Assembly (NCBI GenBank): GCA_964559945.1
Contig: CAZLJY010000003.1
Location: 5,209 to 69,208 of the forward strand
Length of the DNA stretch: 64,000 nucleotides
Reading direction: 5' to 3'
Origin: an uncultured Gammaproteobacteria bacterium
GTDB taxonomy: Bacteria; Pseudomonadota; Gammaproteobacteria; Xanthomonadales; SZUA-38
Shown here: positions 6,861 through 24,840 of the stretch, one piece after another
Position numbering within the stretch: the stretch's first letter is position 1
How the letters are laid out: the number at the start of each line of letters is the position of its first letter
Notes under the pieces: generated by a model
Databases searched by the model: none
Told to the model about the DNA's origin: nothing
What the model saw: only the letters and a program-made list of their open reading frames with translations
Program-made: the position numbers and the translations under genes

Positions 6861-7405
6861 TGGGTTGAGGTGTAGACAATCTCCACCCGACGATTCTGAC
6901 CCCAGCAACGCTCGGCGCTGCAATTGTTAGCTGGGCGTTCTTCGCCGTAGGACACCACCGACAACTGAGAGGCGCTGGCGCCCTGAGCATCAATGAGATC
7001 TGAGACCGAGTTGCCACGGCTTTCACCTAGGCCCAGGTTGTATTCCCGGGTGCCGCGCTCATCGGCATGGCCTTCCAATGTGATACGGGCACCGCCGTTA
7101 GCACCCAGATAGGTGGCGTGGGCGGCAATAACATCGCGATATTCCTGCTTAATGCGGGATTGATCGAAGTCAAAATAGATCACCCGCGTTGACAACAAGC
7201 TTCTCGGGTTAGTTAAGTTTTCCACTCTCGTGTAGTCGTCATCACGTGTTGAGGACGAAGTCACGGCCGGCGTGTTGTTGGTACTGCTGCTACTTCCGCT
7301 GCTCCTAGGCGTTGGATCTACTTCCGGTTGCTTTTGTTTTCCGCTACAGGCTGCAAGTGCAGCACAAACCGTCACCAGCATGGTGAAACGGGTCAGATTC
7401 TTCAT
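6857..7405 (-). CDS. pal: Peptidoglycan-associated lipoprotein (OmpA family)
   Basis: Lipobox LAACSG and an OmpA-like C-terminus (VIYFDFDQSRI...LEGHADERGTREYNLGLGERR-like...NRRVEI). Confidence 0.95.
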   Translation of the reverse strand: MKNLTRFTMLVTVCAALAACSGKQKQPEVDPTPRSSGSSSSTNNTPAVTSSSTRDDDYTRVENLTNPRSLLSTRVIYFDFDQSRIKQEYRDVIAAHATYLGANGGARITLEGHADERGTREYNLGLGESRGNSVSDLIDAQGASASQLSVVSYGEERPANNCSAERCWGQNRRVEIVYTSTQ

Positions 7406-7436: not shown

Positions 7437-8771
7437 TTACTGTCGTATTGGCGACCACGCCGGCTCCCGGATGTCGCCGTCCGCAAATATCAACTGGTGA
7501 GCGGTTTGTCCTGCAGCCGCTGCACCAAAGATCGGAACCGCGGATAATACACCCTGCGACCCCCGTCTTGAAGCGTAAAGCACCATTCTTCCGTTTGGTG
7601 CAAAGCTGGGTGACTCATCAAGCGGACCGTCCGATATGGTCCTTAAGAGATTTCGTTCCATGTCCAGCAACGCAATTTTATAGTTATTGTCGTTTCCATG
7701 CACCAACACTAACTGGCTACCATCGGGTGACATGGACGCTCGGGCATTGTACTCGCCCTGGCGAGTTACCCGCTCAGGCTTCGCCCCAGACCGGGCTTCT
7801 ACCTGGTAAATTTGGGGCCGACCGCCACGGTCGGACGTAAACAACACGTATTTGCCGTCAGCACTCCAGGCAGGTTCCGTATCAATCCCAAAATGCTGGG
7901 TCAACTGTATCGTGCGCCGAGTGGCCAGATCCATGACGTAGATCTCAAGATTGCCGCTTCTGGACAGTGCCAGGGCTAATTTTCGGCCATCAGGAGAAAA
8001 AGCGGGCGCTCCATTGATGCCCTTAAAGCTCGATACCAGCTGGCGCTGGCCTGATGCCAATTCCTGGGTATATATCGACGAATTGCCCTTTTCGAAGGAC
8101 ACGTAGGCCACGGTTTTGCCATCGGGCGCCCAGGTCGGCGACAGCAGAGGCTCTTTTGAGCGCACCACAGGCTGTGGTCCGTAGCCATCAGCGTCAGCAA
8201 CCATCAAGGAAAATTCTGTTGAGTCCCCCTCGCCGCTGCGGGTCACGTAGACCAGTCGAGTGCGGAAAAAACCCGGCACATCCAGCAATTTTTCATACAC
8301 GGTGTCAGCGATATGGTGGGACGCGTAGCGAAGCCCCCCGGCCCGGGCAGTGAATTCCAGGCTCAACAAGGCATCGCCGGTGGTCACGTTTAACAGGTGC
8401 ATCCGAATCCGGTAACCCAACGCGTCACCACCGGTCACCTCACCGATAACAATGTAATCCACGTTTAGGCGCCGCCAGGTGCCGTAATTCACATCAGCAA
8501 TTCGGCTGGGACGTTCAATCATGTCTTGCATGGGCAGGGCGCGAAACTGGCCACTGCGAGAAAGATCGTCAGTCACCACCTTGGTCACGTCGGCTTCGCC
8601 AATGGCCGTTTCTGCATTCCAGGCAAACGGCACAACAGCAATGGGCACCGCCGACTCGCCGGACGGGGTAATCACAATGACCACGTCGTCCTGGGACTGG
8701 GCAGGGGCCAACACAAACAGCGCAAGGGCCGCCAGCAGGCTCGTTAGCCATTGTTTACGCAATAAGGTCAT
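7437..8771 (-). CDS. tolB: Tol-Pal system beta-propeller protein TolB
   Basis: Signal peptide, then repeated P.WSPDG / P.FSPDG / P.WSADG beta-propeller motifs. Located between tolA and pal. Confidence 0.95.
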   Translation of the reverse strand: MTLLRKQWLTSLLAALALFVLAPAQSQDDVVIVITPSGESAVPIAVVPFAWNAETAIGEADVTKVVTDDLSRSGQFRALPMQDMIERPSRIADVNYGTWRRLNVDYIVIGEVTGGDALGYRIRMHLLNVTTGDALLSLEFTARAGGLRYASHHIADTVYEKLLDVPGFFRTRLVYVTRSGEGDSTEFSLMVADADGYGPQPVVRSKEPLLSPTWAPDGKTVAYVSFEKGNSSIYTQELASGQRQLVSSFKGINGAPAFSPDGRKLALALSRSGNLEIYVMDLATRRTIQLTQHFGIDTEPAWSADGKYVLFTSDRGGRPQIYQVEARSGAKPERVTRQGEYNARASMSPDGSQLVLVHGNDNNYKIALLDMERNLLRTISDGPLDESPSFAPNGRMVLYASRRGSQGVLSAVPIFGAAAAGQTAHQLIFADGDIREPAWSPIRQ

Positions 8772-11332: not shown

Positions 11333-12377
11333 CGTCAGCTTTTTTAGAGGTGGTCGGTAGATCGCTGAACAGGTCACCGCCAGTGCCCGGCCTGGGCTTA
11401 AGGCCAAAGTGGCGATAGCCTTTGCTGGTGACCATACGGCCACGGGGAGTTCGCATGATAAAGCCCTGTTGAATCAGGTAAGGCTCCAGCACATCCTCAA
11501 CGGTATCGCGCTCCTCGCTGATTGCTGCGGCCAGAGAATCCACCCCCACCGGGCCACCGTCGAAATGTTCGATCATGGTTTTCAGCAGACGTCGATCCTG
11601 AGCATCAAACCCCGCAGCATCCACATCCAACATACCCATGGCTGCAGTGGCGATGGCCTCATCAATGGTGCCGTCACCCTTTACTTGGGCGAAGTCTCGC
11701 ACCCGGCGTAGCAGCCGGTTGGCGATTCGCGGCGTGCCGCGGGAGCGACGAGCCAACTCCTGAGCACCACTATGGTCACACTCAATATTCAGAATGCCAG
11801 CGGATCGTTCGACGATTTGGGTCAGCTCATCAACGCTGTAAAACTCCAACCGCTCCACGATGCCGAATCGATCTCGTAGCGGCGATGTCAGCAGTCCCGC
11901 TCGGGTGGTTGCACCGACCAAGGTGAATGGTGGTAGATCCAGTTGAATGGAACGGGCCGCGGGACCTTCGCCAATCATTAGGTCTAATTTGTAGTCCTCC
12001 ATGGCCGGATACAACACCTCCTCAACCACTGGCGAAAGGCGGTGAATCTCATCCACAAACAAGACATCGTGTTCCTGCAAATTGGTCAGTTGCGCGGCCA
12101 GATCACCGGCGCGCTCTAACACCGGACCGGAGGTAATCTTCAGCGCCGCACCCAGCTCATTGGCGATCACGTGGGCCAAGGTGGTTTTACCCAACCCTGG
12201 CGGGCCATAAATCAGCGTGTGATCCAGCGATTCGCCGCGCCCGCGAGCAGCTTGGATAAATATTTCTAGCTTTTCCTTGACCTGCTCCTGCCCCAGGCAC
12301 TCTTTGAGTGTTTGCGGTCGTAGACTGCGTTCAATGACGTCATCATCACCTTCAGGCCCTACGATACGGTCATCCAT
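11313..12377 (-). CDS. ruvB: Holliday junction branch migration helicase RuvB
   Basis: Walker [18 protein letters not shown], and the overall AAA+ RuvB pattern. Confidence 0.97.
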
Positions 12378-15531: not shown

Positions 15532-16413
15532 GTACCACTGCTCCAACATAGACAAGGAGATACCGGCTCCGCCACAGGCAATCACCAGCGGCTTGTGAGC
15601 CTCAATCAAGCCGTCATAAACCGCACTGACAACCGCGCCACATGCAGGCTCGACTAAACGTCGGTGTTCGTCAGCAAAACGTCGGCACCCAGCCACCGCC
15701 TGGGCGTCGCTCACAAGTCGGCTGTGGATCAAATGCTCTTGGGTCCATTGCCACGCTCTATCTGCGACCTGATGAGCCCCCATGGTGAGGGCGATGGTAT
15801 TGATGGACTCCAATGCCACCGGTCCACCCGCATCCATGGCCGCCTTCAGGGAGGCTGCCCCGTAGGTTTCGACGGCAAACACCGGCACGTCGACCCAGCC
15901 AGCCCGAGCCATACCTTCGAGCACACCACACATCAAGCCACCACCACCAACGGCCAGCACCACTGCGTCAGGTTCCAGTCCGCTTGCCACGCATTCATCC
16001 ACCAAACTACTATGACCGGTCCAGATTTCCGGGTGATCAAAGGGATGAGCGTATGTGCCACCCAACTGATCGCACAGGTGCCGGGCCACTTGATCGGACT
16101 CACTCCAGTCAACGCCTTCCTGACGTACCTTGGCACCCAGGGCAGTGAGCCGCTCCAAGGTCAATTGGGGGACTGTCTCAGGCACCACCACATGGCATTT
16201 GAGGGCTAATTTTCCAGCTGCGTAAGCCACCGCTAGACCCGCATTTCCGCCGGATGAACTGACAATGGTATCGGCGCCAGCGGCTTTGGCCTGCTGCACC
16301 AACCGTGACATACCCCGAAGCTTAAACGAGCCAGTGGGCTGGTCACATTCCATTTTCAGCCACATCTCGCCCGTTTCGACAGGCTGACGTATCAGTGGAG
16401 TGTTGACGTACAT
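15517..16413 (-). CDS. PLP-dependent serine/threonine dehydratase-like enzyme (tryptophan-synthase-beta fold)
   Basis: PTGSFKLRG lysine motif and the SSSGGNAGLAVAYAA glycine loop. The ~298 aa length is typical of short catabolic serine/threonine dehydratases. Confidence 0.8.
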   Translation of the reverse strand: MYVNTPLIRQPVETGEMWLKMECDQPTGSFKLRGMSRLVQQAKAAGADTIVSSSGGNAGLAVAYAAGKLALKCHVVVPETVPQLTLERLTALGAKVRQEGVDWSESDQVARHLCDQLGGTYAHPFDHPEIWTGHSSLVDECVASGLEPDAVVLAVGGGGLMCGVLEGMARAGWVDVPVFAVETYGAASLKAAMDAGGPVALESINTIALTMGAHQVADRAWQWTQEHLIHSRLVSDAQAVAGCRRFADEHRRLVEPACGAVVSAVYDGLIEAHKPLVIACGGAGISLSMLEQWYSASP

Positions 16414-16565
16414 ACCGCCTCCTTAAGGCAAATTCGGCTAACCTATAGTGAATCACTTGTGTAAGAGAAAACCATAGACAATCAATAATGACGGCCGCAA
16501 TGGATTGTTCATCAAGTCAGAGTTGCACCAAATGCGCTTGATAAATAAACCATCGAGTGCAAATA

Positions 16566-16598
16566 GTTAGGGGGAAAAGGATCTTTTGAACGTCTGCC
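16566..16598 (+). promoter_or_regulatory. Candidate ECF-sigma-type promoter upstream of P1
   Basis: GTTAGGGGG (16566-16574), a 16-nt spacer, then CGTC (16591-16594) inside AACGTCTGCC (16589-16598). The same architecture and the identical 10-mer recur upstream of P2. Confidence 0.4.
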
Positions 16599-16608
16599 AA
16601 CAGAACTT

Positions 16609-18033
16609 ATGAGTAAACAACGACTGATCCATAGTATTGCCATCGCCGCTCTGTTGGCTTGCGCCACCGCCAATGCAGTGCGCCTAAGTCTGGACGATTC
16701 AGGTCAGGTTTTGCTGTTCCCGTTGTTTCTCACTGGCGGCAGTTTTCAGACCATTTTTGAGATTCGCAATCAATCAGATTTGGGCAAGGCTCTGCGTCTG
16801 GTGGTTAAGGACCCGGTCAACGCGCGCCCAACCCTATCATTGAACATTTACCTGGCGCCCGGGGATAGTTGGTCTAGCGCGTTATTTAGCCCCGACCCCG
16901 ATCAACCGGTTCGTACCGCAACCGCGGTTCTCGCCAAATCCGAAGATGCCAGCTGCACCTTTCCCGAGCGCAGTGCAATCCCAGACACGGGAATGACACT
17001 CAGCGAAGCGTTTTTTAGTGAAGACTTGAGTGGCATTGTATTGAGCCAGTCGCGCCGTGCGCTAGGTTTTGTTGAAGTCTATGAGATGGGTGCAATGGAG
17101 CCAGCATTGGCCACCGACTGCGAAGAAATATCCCAGCGCTTCAGTGACGGTGGCATTTGGACCACAACACCGAATCAGGACTTGCTCCCACCGGGGGGCG
17201 GTGTGGAGGGTTACGCCATTTTGGTGGATGTAGACCAGGGACGTGCCCATCAGTACGAGGCACTGGCCCTGGAAGATTTCCGCGACTCAGCCTTACATAC
17301 CCACCCCTTGACCAGCCGTCAGCCCAACCTGATGGACGTCAGTCCGGCCGAGAGTCGGGTGCTGGAAACCGTCGAATTTGGCAATCGAACGCTGCAGGTC
17401 GAACGGGTTTCCAACTGGAGCCAGACCCCGGTGCATGCCGTGGACGCGCTGCTGATGGCCACCGAGGCTCGCACCGACTATTCCGTCGCCGCCAACCTTG
17501 ACGCAACAGTGTTCACTACCCTAAATTTCCCGACCCGGGCCTATCACGCCGATGTGGAAAGGTTTTATCTCGCTCAGGGGCAAGACCGCGTATTAGCCCC
17601 ATTCCAAACCTCCTTGCCACTGGCCGCTGCGGAGAACCTTGAAGCCAACGCCATTGAGGTCACCTCAGTGGACCGAGAAGGCCGCAATTTTACCCTCCAA
17701 CCCTTTTCAGGGCGCGTTAACTGTGATCTGGCCAATAGCGCAGTCACCACCGTATTTATGAGCAACACCATCGGGTTCACTCAGCCTTGTGACTACACCG
17801 AGGGGGAGTTCCGCGTTCCCAACAACGCCATGGAGGGTGAAGTTCGATATCAGTTAAGTGGAGAAATAGTGTCGGATGAAGGTCATGTTTTTTCTGGCTT
17901 ACCCATCGCAGGCTTTGTTATACAAAGCATCCGCAACACTCAGATCGACGTTGCACCTGGGGTTCGAGGCATTGCTGATTACGGTTGGGCCCGAGCACTG
18001 AAAATTGAACGCCAGGTCACAGACCCACAATGA
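16609..18033 (+). CDS. Uncharacterised secreted protein P1 (paralog of 22767..24032)
   Basis: Signal peptide MSKQRLIHSIAIAALLACATANA. No motif that I can assign to a characterised family. Clear paralogy to P2, with four aligned cysteines. The stop overlaps the tonB-like start (ATGA at 18030-18033). Confidence 0.85.
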   Translation: MSKQRLIHSIAIAALLACATANAVRLSLDDSGQVLLFPLFLTGGSFQTIFEIRNQSDLGKALRLVVKDPVNARPTLSLNIYLAPGDSWSSALFSPDPDQPVRTATAVLAKSEDASCTFPERSAIPDTGMTLSEAFFSEDLSGIVLSQSRRALGFVEVYEMGAMEPALATDCEEISQRFSDGGIWTTTPNQDLLPPGGGVEGYAILVDVDQGRAHQYEALALEDFRDSALHTHPLTSRQPNLMDVSPAESRVLETVEFGNRTLQVERVSNWSQTPVHAVDALLMATEARTDYSVAANLDATVFTTLNFPTRAYHADVERFYLAQGQDRVLAPFQTSLPLAAAENLEANAIEVTSVDREGRNFTLQPFSGRVNCDLANSAVTTVFMSNTIGFTQPCDYTEGEFRVPNNAMEGEVRYQLSGEIVSDEGHVFSGLPIAGFVIQSIRNTQIDVAPGVRGIADYGWARALKIERQVTDPQ

Positions 18034-18764
18034 AACAAACCCGTGGCAGACTGATCGCATGTATCGCCGCCTCCATCGTTGTGCAGCTGTTGTTGCTGGC
18101 TTGGTTGGCCCGGCCGGTTTCCTTGCCGCTGTCTTTACCGACGTTGGAAGTACTGCTGGTCAGTCCGCGGGATCTCGATAACCTGTCTGCGGCGAGTTTA
18201 CCGGCTCAAACTCAAGCTACCCAAGCGCCAACACCTTCTCAATCCGGCGATGCGCAAAGCAAGCCACCGCCCGCGCCACTTTCGGACCCACTGGCCGCCA
18301 AATCTGATCGTCAGCCAGTGCCGAACATCCCGCAATCTGGCACTGGAATCACTGCCAGCTCTATCGCTAGCGTGTTGCCGATTGATTTTACTCAAAGCCT
18401 TTCGCCGCCGCAGCCAGCTGGACAAAACCCGGCTAACTCAGTGGACTTCAGAAATCCTGACCCGCACAACGCCGGGGTGGAGCTCGCCATTCGCCAGCGC
18501 CTCGCCCAGTTTCAATCCTATCCTCCCAGCGCCCGCCGCCGGGGGATTGAAGGTGACGTCACAGTGAGATTCGTCATTGGTCAACGAGGCAAAGTGATGG
18601 ACAGTGAACTGATTAAGTCTTCCGGCTCTCGTCATTTGGATCAGGCCGCCCTTAGACTGGTGGCCGATGCGGCACCCTATCCGTCATTACCTGCCAGTAT
18701 TTCCGCCTCCAGACTAGAGGTCAAAATACCCATCGAGTACCGATTGCAGCCTCCAGCCATATAG
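18030..18764 (+). CDS. TonB family energy-transducer paralog
   Basis: N-terminal TM anchor, a Pro/Gln/Ser-rich spacer, and a C-terminal TonB domain (YPPSARRRGIEGDVTVRFVIGQRGKVMDSELIKSSGSRHLDQAALRLV...YP). Confidence 0.85.
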   Translation: MKQTRGRLIACIAASIVVQLLLLAWLARPVSLPLSLPTLEVLLVSPRDLDNLSAASLPAQTQATQAPTPSQSGDAQSKPPPAPLSDPLAAKSDRQPVPNIPQSGTGITASSIASVLPIDFTQSLSPPQPAGQNPANSVDFRNPDPHNAGVELAIRQRLAQFQSYPPSARRRGIEGDVTVRFVIGQRGKVMDSELIKSSGSRHLDQAALRLVADAAPYPSLPASISASRLEVKIPIEYRLQPPAI

Positions 18765-18786
18765 ATTTGGACGCCCTTTTCGCACC

Positions 18787-19290
18787 ATGAATTTGGCCAA
18801 CGCTGCCAACGCCGTTGAGACCCATCGCACTGAGCTCACCGCTTTCGCCGCGGCAATGGTGGGGACTCACCGGGCCGAAGACGTTGTTCAGGACGCCTGT
18901 TTTCGACTGGCCCGGGCATTGGAGCGGCAGCCCGCTGACAAACCCATAGAGAATGTGCGGGCCTATTTGTTTCGCATTACTGCCAACTTGGCGCGAGACC
19001 TGCTACGCCGTGATAAACGCTCAGACCGACATCTAAAAACCTTGGTTGAAGACGATAACAGCCCGGCTGCGGGCGAGGTTGCGGCCCTGGATGAGCAATT
19101 GGTTTTGCTTCGGGAGGCCATTGCCCAACTGCCAACCAAGTGCCGTCGGGCGTTCGTCGCGCGCAAGTATGAGGGACTTTCATACAAGGAAATCTCCGCC
19201 CGCGAGGGAATTACCGAGAAAACCGTCGAAAACCATATTGGGCGCGCACTAAAACTCCTGCGCGAGTCCATGGCCAGGCTAGAACAGTAG
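18787..19290 (+). CDS. ECF (sigma-70 family, FecI-like) RNA polymerase sigma factor
   Basis: Region 2 (VQDACFRL...YLFRITANLARDLLRR) and region 4 (LPTKCRRAFVARKYEGLSYKEISAREGITEKTVENHIGRAL). Length 167 aa. Confidence 0.9.
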   Translation: MNLANAANAVETHRTELTAFAAAMVGTHRAEDVVQDACFRLARALERQPADKPIENVRAYLFRITANLARDLLRRDKRSDRHLKTLVEDDNSPAAGEVAALDEQLVLLREAIAQLPTKCRRAFVARKYEGLSYKEISAREGITEKTVENHIGRALKLLRESMARLEQ

Positions 19291-19324
19291 GCTAGAACAG
19301 TAGGCTAGAACAGTAGGCTAGAAC
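19276..19324. repeat. Perfect 13-bp tandem repeat (AGGCTAGAACAGT x3 plus a 10-nt partial copy)
   Basis: Read directly. Units lie at 19276-19288, 19289-19301 and 19302-19314, with a partial copy at 19315-19324. The sigma-factor stop codon TAG (19288-19290) spans the junction between unit 1 and unit 2. Confidence 0.95.
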
Positions 19325-19357
19325 GGAAGTGTATGAGCCAAGCAAATATTCATTTTT

Positions 19358-19379
19358 CAACGGGTCAGCAGACCCGTTG
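19358..19379 (+). other. Intercistronic stem-loop between the sigma and anti-sigma genes
   Basis: CAACGGGTC-AGCA-GACCCGTTG: a 9-bp perfect stem and a 4-nt loop. No U-tract follows, so it is not a canonical intrinsic terminator. Confidence 0.6.
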
Positions 19380-19400
19380 TCGACCACAACGGACCAGGGC

Positions 19401-19429
19401 GTTGGGGGAATAGGGGTGATTGGAGCGTT
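19401..19429 (+). promoter_or_regulatory. Candidate ECF-sigma-type promoter-like motif upstream of fecR
   Basis: GTTGGGGG (19401-19408), a 17-nt spacer, then CGTT (19426-19429). It resembles the motifs before P1 and P2 but lies only a few nt from ATG 19433, which would imply a near-leaderless transcript. Confidence 0.25.
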
Positions 19430-19432
19430 GCT

Positions 19433-20374
19433 ATGAATACGACACAGGACAATACGACGCCAATGGAACAGGCCGCACAGTGGATGAGCCGTTTGGGAGC
19501 AACAGAAACGCCCGACTGGAACGACCCGGAATTTGCCGTTTGGCTGGATCAATCGACCCGGCATCGGGAAGCGTTTGCCGAAGTCAGCGCCCTGTGGTTT
19601 GCGGCCGAACAAATTGCGCCGGGCGACGATCTAAAGCCCCCTTCCCTGGATCACCAATGGAACCCTTTGGCAACTTCCAATCGGCGAACCTCCCGTTGGC
19701 GCATCGGTGCTGGCTTTGCGGTGGCCTTGACGGCCCTAATGTTACTACCCAATGTGCTGCAGCGCTGGACGGCGTCGCAATCAGAGTTCCTCACCCAACG
19801 AGGCGAAACCGCAAACATCACACTGGCTGACGGCTCAACGATTCAAATGGCTGGTCTCAGTGCGTTCAGTTCTTTGAGCGACGGGCGCGGCATTGAACTG
19901 CACTACGGCGAAGTTTTCCTGCAGGTTACCCATGACCCGCAAGATCCATTTGTGGTCTCTGCTGGAGATAATGAAGTCACGGTGCTGGGCACCCAGTTTG
20001 GTGTTGCATGGCGGGACGGCGAGCACCGCGCTGGCGTGGTTAGCGGTCGGGTTTCCGTGTCCTCAGGAACGGGGCCTTTAATTCAGCTGGGGCCCGGCGA
20101 GCTTGCCGTCAACGGCACCCAGAGCCGGCAGCCGGGCCAGGATTTTTTCGCCTGGCGCTCGGGCAATCTGGTGTTTACCGAGACACCACTGAGCCAAGTG
20201 ATCGATCAATTGGCCCCTTTCCTCTCTCAGCGAATTATCCGGGTACCCGGCGCTAAGGACCCCATGGTTAGCGCTGTGGTTAATCTTCGTGTTGGCGACC
20301 AAATGCTTGAAACCCTGGCCCAAAGTACGGGTATGCAGATACTGACCGCCGGGCCGGTTACACTGCTGTACTGA
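19433..20374 (+). CDS. FecR-like transmembrane anti-sigma factor / sensor
   Basis: N-terminal anti-sigma segment (AAQWMSRL...FAVWLDQSTRHREAFAEV), a single TM (IGAGFAVALTALMLL), and a periplasmic FecR domain (GEVFLQVTHDPQDPFVVSAGDNEVTVLGTQFGV). SD GGAG lies 8 nt upstream. Confidence 0.88.
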   Translation: MNTTQDNTTPMEQAAQWMSRLGATETPDWNDPEFAVWLDQSTRHREAFAEVSALWFAAEQIAPGDDLKPPSLDHQWNPLATSNRRTSRWRIGAGFAVALTALMLLPNVLQRWTASQSEFLTQRGETANITLADGSTIQMAGLSAFSSLSDGRGIELHYGEVFLQVTHDPQDPFVVSAGDNEVTVLGTQFGVAWRDGEHRAGVVSGRVSVSSGTGPLIQLGPGELAVNGTQSRQPGQDFFAWRSGNLVFTETPLSQVIDQLAPFLSQRIIRVPGAKDPMVSAVVNLRVGDQMLETLAQSTGMQILTAGPVTLLY

Positions 20375-22704
20375 TGAATGCAAAAACCCGCCGATGCGGG
20401 CTGCTGGCCCTGTTCATGGCTGGAACGCTGGTGGCTCTATCTAGTCAGGCGCAAACCCTGGAGGAGGCGCTGCGCCGCATTAGCGAACAGCAGAGCTGGA
20501 ATTACCTGCTGGGACCTGGGGTCGATCTATCCCTGCCTGTTAGTACGGATATTTTGACCGAGGCCGCGCTTGAGCAGTTCCTGCAACGATCGGCCATTAC
20601 CATCCATGTTTTGCCAACAGGCGATCGACAACTGCGCCGAGACAACCTGGCACAAGTCAGCTTGGACGCATTGCCTGTGACAGCAGCCTCATTGGCTGGA
20701 GGCGGGCCGCCACTGCGTAACGGTGTCAGCGGCACCCAGATCAGCGCGCAGGATATGGAAAATTTAAACGACACCCAGCTCGATCAACTATTCACCCGAG
20801 CTGCTAACGTTTTTGGCAGCGGTGATGAGTACTATGTTCGCGGAGTGGCCAGTGGCGGCGACCTCAATACCCTGGGCAACGCCGCGGCCGTTGTGGGTAA
20901 AGCGCCTCTGCCCAATGCCGTACTGGGAAATCTACCCTTAAGCACCTGGGATGTGGCGAGTGCCGGATTTGAGCGAGGCACCCGCAGCGCCAGCGAGGCT
21001 GGACCGTTTAGCAGTTTTGCCGGGCGCATCAGCATCCGACCCAAGGCACCGGGGTTTGCCAATGAGCATCGGTTCCGGTTAGGCCTAACCGAGCTGGGTG
21101 ATTCGCAAATTTCACTGTTGGCCAATACGGTCTTCATCGATGAAGAACTGGCAATGCGGGTTAGCGTAGATCGCCAATCCCTTGCCGGCACACTCACCGA
21201 CCCGGGCACATCCCGTTCCACGGGACTCGGGGAGGATTTTGATTTTCGCCGAAGCACCACCGCACGTGCCGCGCTATCGTGGGAACCTGCGGCCCTGCCC
21301 GCGCTGCGTGTCTCCTTGGACCTCATTGGCATTGACGGCAGTGCCGGACCCCAGCGAATAACGGCAACCAACCCCTTTGATCGGGTTGGTCGAGGACCGC
21401 CATTTTTACAGCAAGATGTCAGCGGCGAGTTGGCGACCTTAAGTGGCATCGTTGAAAGCACCAACATGGGAAATTTCAGCATCGACGTGGTGGCCTCTCG
21501 AGGTACCGCAGAGCTGGTACCCAGCCGGGTTCTAGCCAATGATCTAGACCCAGCCGACCCCTTAGTGGACGAAGAACGCGACCGCCTCCTATTCAGTCAC
21601 CTTAATTGGACTAAGACTTGGAATCACTCGACTCTCGGCATTGGTCTGAGCGCAGGACAGAATTCGCACCAGGATGGCTATTTGCGCGAGCAGCGAGACT
21701 GGCGGTTACGCAGCCGCCTACGTCGCAACACCCTCGCCTTAACTCTAGATACTGCGTTAACGAAAGCTTGGCGGTTGCAGGCTGGATTGCGCTACACCAA
21801 AGATCAATTGCGGCGCAGTTGCAGTAGCACGGCGCTGGGATCGCCTTCTTCTCAGCCCAGTGACTGTTTGCAAGTTCTAGGGCTACTACTGATTCCATTG
21901 GATGGACAATTTGAACGGTTCAGTCAACGTTATGACAACCTCAGCCCCGAACTAGCGCTGGCCTATAAGCCCTCCGCCAACAGCGAGTATTACCTGCGCT
22001 TGGCCGAAGGGTTTAACAGCGGCGGCGCTGTTTCCGACGCCACCTTTGATGGCTTACCCCAATGGATTTTCTATGAGCCAGAACGCTCTCGCGGCGCTGA
22101 GCTTGGCTGGCGCGGGCAACTTGGGAGTTTAACCGTCAACGCAACCGCATTTCACACGCAGTTAGATCAACAATGGCAGGTGATACAAGGCAATGTGGGG
22201 CTAGGAGACATCATTAACGTTGGTAATTCTAAAAGCCGTGGCCTGGAATTGGATGGGCGTTGGCAATTGTCTCCAGACCACCAGCTAGCGTTTAGCTTGG
22301 GCTGGCTCAATACGCGATTCGAAAACTTTCTGCCCTTCGAAGCCGATGCCCGGCTTGAACCTGCTGGCGGCAATCAGTTTCCCGGTGCACCGGATTTTTC
22401 CGGTTCACTGAACTGGCGCTCTAGCCTAGGGGCTGGCTGGCAAATCGGTGCTGGATTGACCTTTCACGACGCTGTACAGGCCAACGCTAACAATCCGGAT
22501 TCAGCCGAAATCCCCGCCGTTGCCTTGGCTGACTTGCGAGTCGCTTGGCAGCGCGGATCGATCACCGTGGCGTTGACGGCGCGCAACCTGTTTGACCGCG
22601 ATTATCAACAAACCACGCCCAACGTCATTCGTCGCAACCAACGCATTGATTATTTGCCTGGGCGTCCACGCAATATCGGTCTGACCCTTCAGTATGATTT
22701 TTAA
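20374..22704 (+). CDS. TonB-dependent transducer (TonB-dependent receptor with N-terminal STN signalling domain)
   Basis: Signal peptide ...LSSQAQ and an STN-like N-terminal extension (LEEALRRISEQQSWNYLL...). The body is beta-barrel-like and the terminus (RPRNIGLTLQYDF) ends in the aromatic residue typical of TBDRs. The start overlaps the fecR stop (TGATG). Confidence 0.8.
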   Translation: MNAKTRRCGLLALFMAGTLVALSSQAQTLEEALRRISEQQSWNYLLGPGVDLSLPVSTDILTEAALEQFLQRSAITIHVLPTGDRQLRRDNLAQVSLDALPVTAASLAGGGPPLRNGVSGTQISAQDMENLNDTQLDQLFTRAANVFGSGDEYYVRGVASGGDLNTLGNAAAVVGKAPLPNAVLGNLPLSTWDVASAGFERGTRSASEAGPFSSFAGRISIRPKAPGFANEHRFRLGLTELGDSQISLLANTVFIDEELAMRVSVDRQSLAGTLTDPGTSRSTGLGEDFDFRRSTTARAALSWEPAALPALRVSLDLIGIDGSAGPQRITATNPFDRVGRGPPFLQQDVSGELATLSGIVESTNMGNFSIDVVASRGTAELVPSRVLANDLDPADPLVDEERDRLLFSHLNWTKTWNHSTLGIGLSAGQNSHQDGYLREQRDWRLRSRLRRNTLALTLDTALTKAWRLQAGLRYTKDQLRRSCSSTALGSPSSQPSDCLQVLGLLLIPLDGQFERFSQRYDNLSPELALAYKPSANSEYYLRLAEGFNSGGAVSDATFDGLPQWIFYEPERSRGAELGWRGQLGSLTVNATAFHTQLDQQWQVIQGNVGLGDIINVGNSKSRGLELDGRWQLSPDHQLAFSLGWLNTRFENFLPFEADARLEPAGGNQFPGAPDFSGSLNWRSSLGAGWQIGAGLTFHDAVQANANNPDSAEIPAVALADLRVAWQRGSITVALTARNLFDRDYQQTTPNVIRRNQRIDYLPGRPRNIGLTLQYDF

Positions 22705-22707
22705 ATC

Positions 22708-22741
22708 GTTTGGGGGGCAGCGTTGTTGGCAAACGTCTGCC
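22708..22741 (+). promoter_or_regulatory. Candidate ECF-sigma-type promoter upstream of P2
   Basis: GTTTGGGGGG (22708-22717), 16 nt counted from the last five Gs, then CGTC (22734-22737) inside AACGTCTGCC (22732-22741). That 10-mer is identical to the one upstream of P1. Confidence 0.4.
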
Positions 22742-22766
22742 CGACATAGAACAACGGAGTTTAACC

Positions 22767-24032
22767 ATGAAGATTCGCTTTTTGATGATAGCCCTAATAT
22801 TGAGCTTGCCGGTTTGCACTGTGCAAGCAGTCAGCTTAGATACCAGCGGCCGCAACGCCCAGGTGCTGATATTTCCGGTGTTCACAACCCAAGGCGCCTT
22901 TGAGACCGATTTCACCATTCGAAATAACACCGACCAAGGTAAAGCACTGAGGGTCGTTACCAAAGACGCATTGGCCGGCCGCCCCACCATCAGCGTCAAT
23001 GTATACCTAAAACCCGGTGATGCCTGGAACGCGCGATTAATCGGACAGCCTGCATTCTCAGCAACGCTGGTCAGCAATGACGAAAGTTGCAGCGTACCGC
23101 GCCTCGCCTCACCGCGGGCAACCGCCGCGCAGTTAGACGCTAACCTGGATGGCGGACGTTTGCCTCGCTCCCAGCTCGTTACCGGTTATATCGAGGTGTT
23201 CGAAATGGGAGAAATCAGTCCGGAGTTGGCTGCTGACTGCGATGAGATTGATAGTCGGTTCGCCGATGGCGTGTGGTCAACTGGCGAGGTGTTGGTCAAC
23301 GACGGGGTCAGTGCTCCTGGAGGCGGCTTGTCTGGCATCTCCTATGTTCGTGACACTGCTCGCGGCAACACATTGGCGTTTCGGCCGACCGGGCTTGCCG
23401 ATTTCAGTAACGTGCCCAATCACACGGTCCGCCAACGGGCAGGCCGGCCTTCCCTGGGTAACGTTGCACCGGCGCAAGCAGAGATTGATGGACAGACCTT
23501 TGGTTTTTCCTCCAGCCCAATCAATGCCGTTGAAGCGGTTTTGATGACTCAGCAGCTATCCGCTGAGTACCATAGCCAAGAGGGCACACAGGCCTTTGCC
23601 ACGGCGATGGTCCTGCTGCCTACTCGGCCCTTTCATGCCAACCCGGGCTTTTATCGACCCTTCAACGCATCACCGTTTGACCCAGCTAACAATCAGGTTG
23701 TTGGCAACATTGTTGACAACAAAGGAGATCGGTTGAACAACTTATCTACGCCTGCGGCAGGCGAGTTGTGTGACCGCTACACTGGCGCGCTAAATTTTGT
23801 GTCGTTGATCAATTTTCTGGCGTTTAGCGCCATTTGCGATTTCGGTGAAGCCCAGCTGTTTTTGTTCAATGACGATTTTCGCGGTGTCGTGGAACTGCCA
23901 CTGACTGGCAGCGTAACGGCCGATGACGGCACATCATTCAATGGTCTTCCCGCGGTTGGTCATCTGTTGCAAACCACCCTCAATAACACCGATGAATTGG
24001 GTGTATATGCCATACCCATGAGACGGCAGTAA
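22767..24032 (+). CDS. Uncharacterised secreted protein P2 (paralog of 16609..18033)
   Basis: ATG 22767 has GGAG 8-11 nt upstream; the caller's 22710 start is a 5' extension. Signal peptide MKIRFLMIALILSLPVCTVQA. Alignable to P1 along its whole length. Confidence 0.85.
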   Translation: MKIRFLMIALILSLPVCTVQAVSLDTSGRNAQVLIFPVFTTQGAFETDFTIRNNTDQGKALRVVTKDALAGRPTISVNVYLKPGDAWNARLIGQPAFSATLVSNDESCSVPRLASPRATAAQLDANLDGGRLPRSQLVTGYIEVFEMGEISPELAADCDEIDSRFADGVWSTGEVLVNDGVSAPGGGLSGISYVRDTARGNTLAFRPTGLADFSNVPNHTVRQRAGRPSLGNVAPAQAEIDGQTFGFSSSPINAVEAVLMTQQLSAEYHSQEGTQAFATAMVLLPTRPFHANPGFYRPFNASPFDPANNQVVGNIVDNKGDRLNNLSTPAAGELCDRYTGALNFVSLINFLAFSAICDFGEAQLFLFNDDFRGVVELPLTGSVTADDGTSFNGLPAVGHLLQTTLNNTDELGVYAIPMRRQ

Positions 24033-24059
24033 GCACTAAGCCAACTGCCGCGCCCTGTT

Positions 24060-24088
24060 GCGGCCCCATTTCTGGGGCCGCTTTTTTT
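24060..24088 (+). terminator. Rho-independent terminator ending the P1...P2 operon
   Basis: GCGGCCCCA-TTTC-TGGGGCCGC followed by TTTTTTT. Confidence 0.85.
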
Positions 24089-24135
24089 CACACCAACAAA
24101 GGCGCAGCCTGACTTAGACTAACCCGTCTAACATT

Positions 24136-24840
24136 TTACCGGCGCTCGTCCCATGAGCAGGCAACAACCACCAGCACGTAAACGCATTTCACTTCCAAAC
24201 CAAAACTCGTGACAAACCCAAATTCCGGGGTGATTTTGTCGAAACCCCGCTCTAACTTCCCACGAAAACCTGCTGAATAGAACCGAAGACCCATTTCACC
24301 AGGTTCAAAAGGCAGTTGTGGCAGCGGTCGATCGAGGGTTGTGAGCATGTTCGTTTGGTCGGCAAGCCCCAGTAGCATTGGTGGTATCTGGGGTTCAGGA
24401 GCGATATCAAGCTGGGACTGTCCATCCAGGCGGTATCGCGCCATTTGATTGAGCAAGTCATCTGCCGTCGGCCCAGCAACCTCCTCTGCGACTGGCTGCA
24501 CCGAGGGCTCTGGCATGTCCCGAGTTTCAATGGGGTCTGATTTTGGTGTATCAGGGGTAACGGGTATTTCTTCAGGCTCGGCTGGCGCGAGCTGTTCCCG
24601 CTCCAGCAGCGGTGCAGGTTCTGGACGTGCTATCGGCTCGGGAGGGGCGATTACAGGGGATATCAACTCCACCTCCAAGGCGGGTTGACGCACAGGCGCA
24701 GGCAACGGCTGGAGGCTCAACCACCACAGCACAGCGCAATGCACCAATGTAGCGATAACGAGCCAAACCGGTGCCGATAACCGCGGCCACTTTACCGCCG
24801 GCCACTGTGGACCATCCACAGCAACAACCAGAGTACCCAT
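24136..24840 (-). CDS. Membrane-anchored proline-rich protein (TonB-N-terminus-like, no recognisable TonB C-terminal domain)
   Basis: TM helix (VWLVIATLVHCAVLWWLSL), then PxP/EP-rich spacers (PPEPIARPEPAPLLEREQLAPAEPEEIPVTP). The C-terminal ~90 aa are unlike TonB_C. It lies directly downstream of ppc on the same strand. Confidence 0.55.
   Translation of the reverse strand: MGTLVVAVDGPQWPAVKWPRLSAPVWLVIATLVHCAVLWWLSLQPLPAPVRQPALEVELISPVIAPPEPIARPEPAPLLEREQLAPAEPEEIPVTPDTPKSDPIETRDMPEPSVQPVAEEVAGPTADDLLNQMARYRLDGQSQLDIAPEPQIPPMLLGLADQTNMLTTLDRPLPQLPFEPGEMGLRFYSAGFRGKLERGFDKITPEFGFVTSFGLEVKCVYVLVVVACSWDERR

Follow-up and report, generated by a model that had tools for sequence, protein, structure and literature searches.

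Predicted promoters with a G-tract -35 element at three conserved positions of a locus encoding an ECF sigma factor in uncultured Gammaproteobacteria

A locus of six genes was analysed within a 64,000-nucleotide (nt) stretch of DNA from an uncultured gammaproteobacterium (contig CAZLJY010000003.1), hereafter called the window. The genes encode two paralogous secreted proteins, named P1 and P2, a TonB paralogue, an extracytoplasmic function (ECF) sigma factor, a FecR-type regulator and a TonB-dependent receptor. A motif composed of two blocks is found three times in the locus: it precedes P1, separates the sigma gene from fecR, and occurs a third time immediately past the receptor gene. Comparison with related loci revealed that the pattern TTTGGGGG(A)-N15-17-CGT(C/T)TG is present at these same three places in 29 of 29 testable positions, distributed over ten loci. 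Judging from this conservation, the three copies are very probably ECF-type promoters, read by the sigma factor encoded in the locus.

The motif had been noticed in an earlier inspection of the letters of the window (the sequence-only reading), and its three copies were found again exactly where that reading had placed them. The copy upstream of P1 is made up of GTTAGGGGG (16566-16574), a 16-nt spacer and CGTC (16591-16594). In the copy preceding P2, GTTTGGGGGG (22708-22717) contains six Gs, the last of which is separated by 16 nt from CGTC (22734-22737). In the copy preceding fecR, GTTGGGGG (19401-19408) is followed by a 17-nt spacer and CGTT (19426-19429). The common distance of 16 nt between G-run and CGTC in the P1 and P2 copies was borne out, as was the identity of the 10-mer AACGTCTGCC, located at 16589-16598 and 22732-22741 and without any other occurrence in the window. 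The blocks forming the predicted promoters are the following:

16567-16574, forward strand: -35-like block of the predicted P1 promoter, TTAGGGGG; a T-run followed by a G-run occurs at the same site in all 10 loci
16591-16598, forward strand: -10-like block of the predicted P1 promoter, CGTCTGCC; CGTC is invariant in all loci, 15-16 nt past the last G
19402-19408, forward strand: -35-like block of the predicted fecR promoter, TTGGGGG; directly 3' of the sigma stop codon and kept in all 10 loci
19426-19429, forward strand: -10-like block of the predicted fecR promoter, CGTT; the spacer is 16-17 nt across loci
22709-22717, forward strand: -35-like block of the predicted P2 promoter, TTTGGGGGG; 5 nt past the receptor stop codon and kept in 9 of the 9 loci that reach it
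22734-22741, forward strand: -10-like block of the predicted P2 promoter, CGTCTGCC; CGTCT is invariant in nine sites

Within the window, a loose form of the motif (GGGGG-N16/17-CGTY) is found 4 times against 3.15 matches expected, and 39 of 100 shuffled sequences reached 4 matches, which corresponds to chance level. The window by itself therefore proves nothing, and the significance of the motif derives from the comparison with related loci. In a collection of 5.8 billion proteins, 15 close relatives of P1 were found. Ten loci were compared, consisting of the window and nine related loci (L001-L009), all from metagenomes or metagenome-assembled genomes of uncultured Lysobacterales and other Gammaproteobacteria. 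The seven loci obtained from GTDB genomes (L001-L007) show P1 identities of 44-79% and a common gene order, flanked in most cases by cysK and the gene for phosphoenolpyruvate carboxylase. The other two, L008 and L009, are metagenome loci fetched after the pattern had been fixed, with P1 identities of 48-50% and other flanking genes (succinate dehydrogenase, DoxX).

Phylogenetic footprinting of the orthologous loci, proposed as a check by the sequence-only reading, showed both blocks to be invariant at the three places, with spacer and flanks randomised. Each of the 29 sites lies on the coding strand, preceding either the P1-tonB-sigma genes, the fecR-receptor pair, or the genes for P2 or a beta-propeller protein. 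When the intergenic sequences upstream of P1 and P2 were aligned by MAFFT, T, GGGG, A and CGTC(T) were the only invariant columns. The information content amounts to 2 bits per position in the blocks and to about 0.06-0.5 bit in the spacer, whose length is 16 nt in 21 sites, 15 nt in three and 17 nt in five. The -10 core CGT is shared by all 29 sites, with C as the fourth base in 23 and T in 6. The consensus of the 29 sites is T-T-T-G-G-G-G-G-A-A/C-A ... C-G-T-C/T-T-G-C/T-C, in which the -35 element corresponds to TT(T/A/G)GGGG(G); the As following the G-tract are 59-66% conserved and, if included, would leave a 13-nt spacer.

The comparison modified the original definition of the motif in some respects. 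Of its GTT prefix, the two Ts are conserved and the G is not; similarly, the AA of the 10-mer shared by the P1 and P2 copies turned out to be coincidental, while the conserved -10 block is CGTCTG(C/T)(C/T). The fecR copy had been described as weaker than the others, but is as conserved as they are, being present in 10 of 10 loci; its -10 element reads CGTT in the window and in L001-L005, and CGTC in L006-L009.

A search of 190.6 kb on both strands, performed with the pattern TTNGGGG-N15-17-CGTY, returned 27 matches, 24 of which fall at the three homologous places. The 3 matches located elsewhere compare with 3.2 expected from block shuffles, and one of them is a terminator. In the held-out loci L008 and L009 the pattern matches 5 of 5 testable positions and nothing else. 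The regions concerned were also analysed by a 5-mer test, in which they were set by gene coordinates alone and compared with control regions. The top 5-mers were GGGGG, TTGGG, TGGGG, TTTGG, CGTCT and GGGGA; GGGGG is contained in 25 of 29 regions (control mean 1.6, maximum 6) and CGTCT in 18 of 29 (control mean 2.1). As a negative control, 80 metagenome loci (419 kb) surrounding distant ECF sigma genes (27-38% identity) were searched, and 3 scattered matches were found, never two in the same locus. Outside the three places, neither of these two sets of sequences contains an excess over chance.

Known ECF promoters have consensus sequences such as TGAAAC-N16-CGTA for sigma-W, GGAACTT-N16-TCAAA for sigma-E and GGAAC-N16-CGTT for EcfG. 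The sites described here resemble ECF promoters in general: they are bipartite, their spacer measures 16 +/- 1 nt, their -10 element has CGT(C/T) as its core, and they are located upstream of the sigma factor's own operon and of co-encoded targets. A CGT core in the -10 element and a spacer of 15-17 nt, mostly 16, correspond to the standard ECF layout, as pointed out in the sequence-only reading. Unlike typical ECF promoters, these sites have a -35 element formed by a T-run and an invariant tract of four to six Gs, with no AAC; that the G-run would be unusual had been anticipated, and we agree. A literature search for an ECF group with a G-tract -35 element found none, a weak negative, as the motif tables of the individual groups were outside its reach.

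The genes of the locus and its terminator are listed below:

16609-18033, forward strand: P1, a secreted protein of 474 amino acids (aa) whose signal peptide has AxA|V as its cleavage site; the P1-tonB-sigma unit begins with this gene
18030-18764, forward strand: tonB, a dedicated TonB paralogue (TonB_C, E 4.9e-18)
18787-19290, forward strand: ECF sigma factor with Sigma70_r2 and r4_2 domains, the presumed reader of the three promoters
19433-20374 (as annotated), forward strand: fecR, a FecR-type anti-sigma factor or sigma regulator with FecR and DUF4880 domains
20374-22704, forward strand: TonB-dependent receptor with barrel domain matches and an N-terminal extension of about 65 aa
22767-24032, forward strand: P2, 421 aa, a paralogue of P1 (34% identity), preceded by a GGAG Shine-Dalgarno sequence at 22756-22759
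24060-24091, forward strand: intrinsic terminator closing the locus, formed by a 9-bp stem with 8 G-C pairs and a T-run

Apart from the two internal motif sites, the genes of the locus overlap or are separated by no more than 22 nt. P1 overlaps tonB by 4 nt, a gap of 22 nt separates tonB from the sigma gene, and the receptor gene has one base in common with fecR. The sigma gene is the only one for an ECF sigma factor in the window. Its product, in which region 4.2 reads ITEKTVENHIGRALKLL, has its best NCBIfam matches among FecI-like or Bacteroides-type families, namely PRK12527 and TIGR02985 (the latter of the Bacteroides type), and reaches the cut-off of neither. The fecR product matches PF04773 FecR (E 9e-17), PF16220 DUF4880 (E 6e-06) and the NCBIfam FecR model (E 9e-17, under its equivalog cut-off). 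In the region 16300-24200, a scan for sigma-70 promoters returned 4 promoter-like sites, at chance level (3.5 expected), and the only strong intrinsic terminator found is the one after P2. A 9-bp hairpin between sigma and fecR (19360-19381, CAACGGGTC-AGCA-GACCCGTTG) was evaluated as a terminator and rejected: it has no U-run, the z-score of the region is -1.6, and it is found in the window only.

Two additional sequence features were observed around these genes. At 19276-19324, the 13-nt unit AGGCTAGAACAGT is repeated in perfect tandem (3.8 copies, 100% identity), duplicating the last codons of the sigma gene and its TAG stop; it extends the spacer between sigma and fecR to 142 nt, compared with about 27-95 nt elsewhere among the loci. 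The repeat is absent from all related loci and is therefore a recent slippage duplication. On the other side of P1, at 16440-16460 and at the homologous sites of L001-L005, a conserved block (CTAACCTATAGTGAA or CTGACGTATACTGA) is located about 30-45 nt upstream of the start of the divergent cysK gene; TATAGGT or TATACGT, which appears in the block when the minus strand is read, resembles the -10 element of the cysK promoter.

The link between the motif and the sigma factor was evaluated by examining relatives of the latter. Orthologues with at least 54% identity are found only in loci of the P1 type, and the next relatives, at 43% identity or less, are mostly Bacteroidota-type FecI-like sigma factors, in most cases encoded beside FecR genes. 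Two loci of such next relatives, L011 and L013, are without the motif. A further locus, L012, from a genome of 72% G+C, encodes a sigma factor 40% identical to that of the window and features the tonB-sigma-fecR-receptor core without P1. In this locus TGGGGGA-N16-CGTC is found after the receptor gene, where a Ser/Thr kinase-like gene comes next, and also upstream of tonB in divergent orientation, while GAGGGAA-N14-CGTC lies between sigma and fecR; the sites are located at 7150-7185 (minus strand), 8560-8600 and 11863-11895. This single case is suggestive of a motif that follows the sigma factor rather than P1, and the G-tract promoter may be shared by a wider sigma clade. A scan of metagenomes with the sigma alignment added no members to the clade and returned ECF sigma factors at 27-38% identity only, apart from one 54-residue fragment at 54%. 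From the sequence comparisons as a whole, we infer that the sigma factor of the locus would be the one reading the three motifs.

A scheme for the expression of the locus can be proposed on this basis. Promoter 1 (16567-16598) would drive P1, tonB and the sigma gene, and its transcript would probably run on into fecR and the receptor gene, because no terminator is found in between. As its own operon would be driven by promoter 1, the sigma factor would amplify its own synthesis. Such positive autoregulation, already put forward in the sequence-only reading, fits the 4-nt overlap and the 22-nt gap within the P1-tonB-sigma unit. Promoter 2 (19402-19429), directly following the sigma stop codon, would drive fecR and the receptor gene. 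Promoter 3 (22709-22741) would drive P2, with transcription stopping at the terminator starting at 24060; a separate promoter for P2 had also been suggested, and fits as well.

The activity of the sigma factor would be controlled by cell-surface signalling, with a signal passing from the N-terminal extension of the receptor to the FecR-type membrane protein, and the sigma factor being consequently released or activated. Active sigma factor would raise the expression of the whole uptake module, anti-sigma factor included, which would combine feed-forward and feedback. Overall, from its gene content, the locus looks like a cell-surface-signalling module that has a TonB of its own, along with two secreted proteins of unassigned role.

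In known sigma-E-type ECF promoters the C of GTC is located near -10, and transcription starts are therefore expected about 8-10 nt past CGTY. A pyrimidine-purine step is conserved 7-8 nt past CGTC at P1, and a CA is conserved 8-9 nt downstream at P2. Transcription is predicted to start at about 16602-16604 for P1, 19436-19439 for fecR and 22745-22747 for P2. The distance from CGTC to the P1 start codon is 13-17 nt in 7 of 10 loci and 27-38 nt in L007-L009. For the window, the sequence-only reading had proposed a very short P1 leader of 7-9 nt, with no Shine-Dalgarno sequence; this agrees with the leader predicted here, which would be slightly shorter (about 5-7 nt). For P2, the distance from CGTC to ATG is 29-30 nt and includes a conserved GGAG.

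The situation of fecR is different, as in five loci the -10 element (CGTT) is located only 3 nt before the annotated ATG, at 19433 in the window, so that a transcript from the fecR promoter could not include this codon. All ten loci have a start codon 24-38 nt past CGTY, corresponding in the window to the in-frame ATG at 19463 (M11). Both the conservation of the FecR protein and the DUF4880 match begin at M11, and the conserved start reads M/V-E/I-QAAQWMSRL. The functional start of fecR is likely to be 19463 rather than 19433, at least for the transcript of the fecR promoter.

Several of these observations weigh against interpreting the three copies as promoters of an autoregulated sigma factor. 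The -35 element is without the AAC core typical of ECF promoters (GGAAC or TGAAAC type). No convincing sigma-70 or Fur-controlled promoter able to prime a positive loop was found upstream of P1, where the best matches to a Fur box cover 9-12 of 19 positions in the 10 loci and do not support control by Fur. Sigma factors of the FecI type are reported not to autoregulate (PMC9249621, PMC12772443). A P1 leader as short as that predicted, with no Shine-Dalgarno sequence, would be unusual in Gammaproteobacteria. Finally, given the position of its -10 element relative to the annotated ATG, the fecR site would work as a promoter of fecR only if the downstream start codon is used.

Alternative explanations were evaluated against the same data. 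The resemblance between the copies has practically no probability of being due to chance or to a remnant of the duplication that generated P1 and P2. The loose pattern does occur at chance frequency in the window, but the conservation of all the homologous positions, with no excess elsewhere, is not what chance would produce; as for the duplication, P1 and P2 are only 34% identical, so that neutral upstream DNA would by now be randomised. We regard it as very improbable that the two blocks are bound by some DNA-binding repressor or activator, or act at the RNA level, instead of being recognised by a sigma factor. Conservation alone leaves the binding factor open, and a G-tract is no classical -35 element; the blocks, however, have neither dyad nor direct-repeat symmetry, and no other regulator is encoded in the locus. 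Their fixed separation of 16 +/- 1 nt, across a spacer of free sequence, and their constant location on the coding strand, 13-40 nt before start codons, correspond to the geometry of promoters, and a role in RNA is unlikely for blocks lying upstream of the predicted transcript start.

The sites might also be genuine ECF-type promoters read by a sigma factor encoded elsewhere, the sigma factor of the locus having other targets. The link between sigma factor and motif is one of co-occurrence, and FecI-type sigma factors are usually not autoregulated; still, we consider this improbable, since the motif and the narrow sigma clade are found together in all 10 loci, including the two with different flanks, no second ECF sigma factor is encoded in the window, and L012, with its distant sigma factor and no P1, carries the same motif on the flanks of the cluster. 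Unlikely is the possibility that the P1 and P2 copies are promoters while the fecR copy is unused, representing a weak or decoy sigma-binding site or a part of the translation-initiation region of fecR. Besides the closeness of CGTT to a conserved in-frame ATG in five loci, a GGAG is found in the window just upstream of CGTT, at the place of a Shine-Dalgarno sequence for that ATG. On the other hand, G-tract and CGTY are kept in all 10 loci with a free spacer of 16-17 nt, the distance to the start codon is ordinary in L005-L009, a start codon is available at the downstream position in every locus, and the Has system provides a precedent for an anti-sigma gene driven by its sigma factor. Recognition of all three sites by the locus-encoded sigma factor thus remains the preferred interpretation.

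The proteins predicted to be under this control were also characterised. The receptor is very divergent, as known families match only its C-terminal barrel part, and residues 91-229 have in the AlphaFold model a predicted local distance difference test (pLDDT) score of about 22. A weak match to the plug domain covers residues 119-165 (E 0.017), and is preceded by the extension of about 65 aa. The Pfam search returned no STN domain in the receptor; the alignment of the extension with the FecA signalling domain is collinear but weak (E 0.017), and places DALPV over DALTV, FecA's TonB box. The full-length model (pLDDT 53) was too poor for a fold search, and only its N-terminal secondary structure was considered: within this otherwise poor model, the extension is predicted as beta-alpha-beta-beta-alpha-beta-beta, with pLDDT 70-81. 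The extension may well be a signalling domain.

P1 and P2 carry Sec signal peptides and match no Pfam or NCBIfam family. The AlphaFold model of P1 is mostly composed of beta-strands (pLDDT 80, predicted template modelling score 0.83) and has no match in the PDB. A profile search revealed that the two proteins belong to a large family, comprising 2,684 clusters at 50% identity (E <= 0.001). Its members are typically about 470 aa long, but some reach about double this size (about 950 aa), and fusions to DUF285 repeats also occur; the members looked up bear the name 'hypothetical' or 'uncharacterized' protein, or none. It may be speculated that P1 and P2 capture a substrate for the receptor.

Most loci have P2 as the gene past the third site. 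L005 and L007 have in its place the gene for an 885-aa beta-propeller protein, which in L006 follows P2; in L008 the site is followed by a split P2 homologue (147 and 311 aa) and then by the beta-propeller gene. The beta-propeller protein (PF09826) is secreted, 885-913 aa long, and is encoded at 15954-18608 in L005, 17431-20144 in L006, 7533-8269 in L007 and 11531-14272 in L008. The regulon probably includes this protein as well; its gene has been lost in the window and in L001.

Further downstream, L002-L005 contain three genes with no counterpart in the window or L001, located between P2, or the beta-propeller gene, and a syntenic gene for a 234-aa protein (for instance at 17439-19886 in L004). 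Their products are one small membrane protein, another membrane protein of 241 aa that looks Lgt-like by eye, and a protein whose cysteine motifs look radical-SAM-like; their absence from the window and L001 points to a deletion in the lineage of the window. The 234-aa protein, encoded in the window on the minus strand (24136-24840), has no Pfam or NCBIfam match. In L004 its orthologue starts with an N-terminal hydrophobic segment followed by a proline-rich PEPEP stretch, reminiscent of an envelope protein of the TonB-like or TolA-like type.

The closest known system in terms of logic is Has (hasI, hasS, hasR, hasA, hasB). It comprises a FecI-like sigma factor, a FecR-like anti-sigma factor, an extended receptor, HasB as its dedicated TonB paralogue, and an accessory protein that is secreted; the present locus has a similar combination, its sigma factor being probably FecI-like. 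FecI-type sigma factors are reported not to drive anti-sigma genes, with Has as an exception (PMC9249621): in Serratia marcescens, HasI drives the anti-sigma gene hasS, and the proposed HasI -35 element is TTTACGGGTTT (PMC9249621). An anti-sigma gene with its own promoter of the sigma type is also predicted here, from the motif preceding fecR in 10 of 10 loci, and TTTACGGGTTT, as the -35 element described here, is T-rich and then G-rich. Differences from Has concern the gene order, the absence of HasA family matches for P1 and P2, the presence of Sec signal peptides, and the absence of genes for a type I exporter (ATP-binding cassette and membrane fusion proteins) in the six-gene locus. In addition, hasI is under Fur control and lacks autoregulation; in the present locus, by contrast, the sigma gene lies downstream of a predicted promoter of its own type, and no Fur box was found.

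The FecI-FecR-FecA system of E. coli shares with the locus an ECF sigma factor, a protein with FecR and DUF4880 domains, and a receptor whose extension aligns, if weakly, with the FecA signalling domain. In E. coli, fecIR is transcribed with sigma-70 under repression by Fur and without autoregulation, the fecA promoter being the sole target of the sigma factor (PMC9249621); the HemI operon of Stenotrophomonas is likewise not autoregulated (PMC12772443). The present locus differs in its three predicted targets, including the sigma factor's own operon and the anti-sigma gene, and in the -35 element, since the fecA promoter is GGAAAA...TGTCCTTT. FecI-like sigma factors are over-represented among ECF sigma factors with no predictable promoter, and form the ECF class for which promoter prediction is most difficult (Todor et al. 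2020, PMC7776599).

The sites described here are thus bioinformatic predictions of ECF promoters of a familiar type, involving no new mechanism; what appears to be new is the G-tract -35 element, in an undescribed and apparently autoregulated clade of probably FecI-like sigma factors. A broader interpretation is possible, though we hold it as doubtful. According to it, the clade would use a G-tract -35 element (TTTGGGGG) instead of the near-universal AAC core, and would control a cell-surface-signalling module under positive autoregulation, in contrast to FecI, which is primed through Fur and not autoregulated; P1 and P2, as the cargo of the module, could represent a novel class of proteins that capture substrate together with a TonB-dependent receptor, and one mRNA would be nearly leaderless.

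At the level of the promoters, three sites per locus in ten loci define a -35/-10 pair for an undescribed clade, and a new orthogonal sigma-promoter pair with a G-tract -35 element would be useful for testing the rules of region 4 specificity. According to the scheme proposed, the sigma factor of a FecR/receptor system would both autoregulate positively and control the anti-sigma gene; only the latter has been documented so far, in Has. The likely start codon of fecR was corrected in the process. Finally, the motif would mark a regulon including P1, P2 and, in related genomes, the beta-propeller protein, and may thereby provide a regulatory handle on a large, uncharacterised family of secreted proteins.

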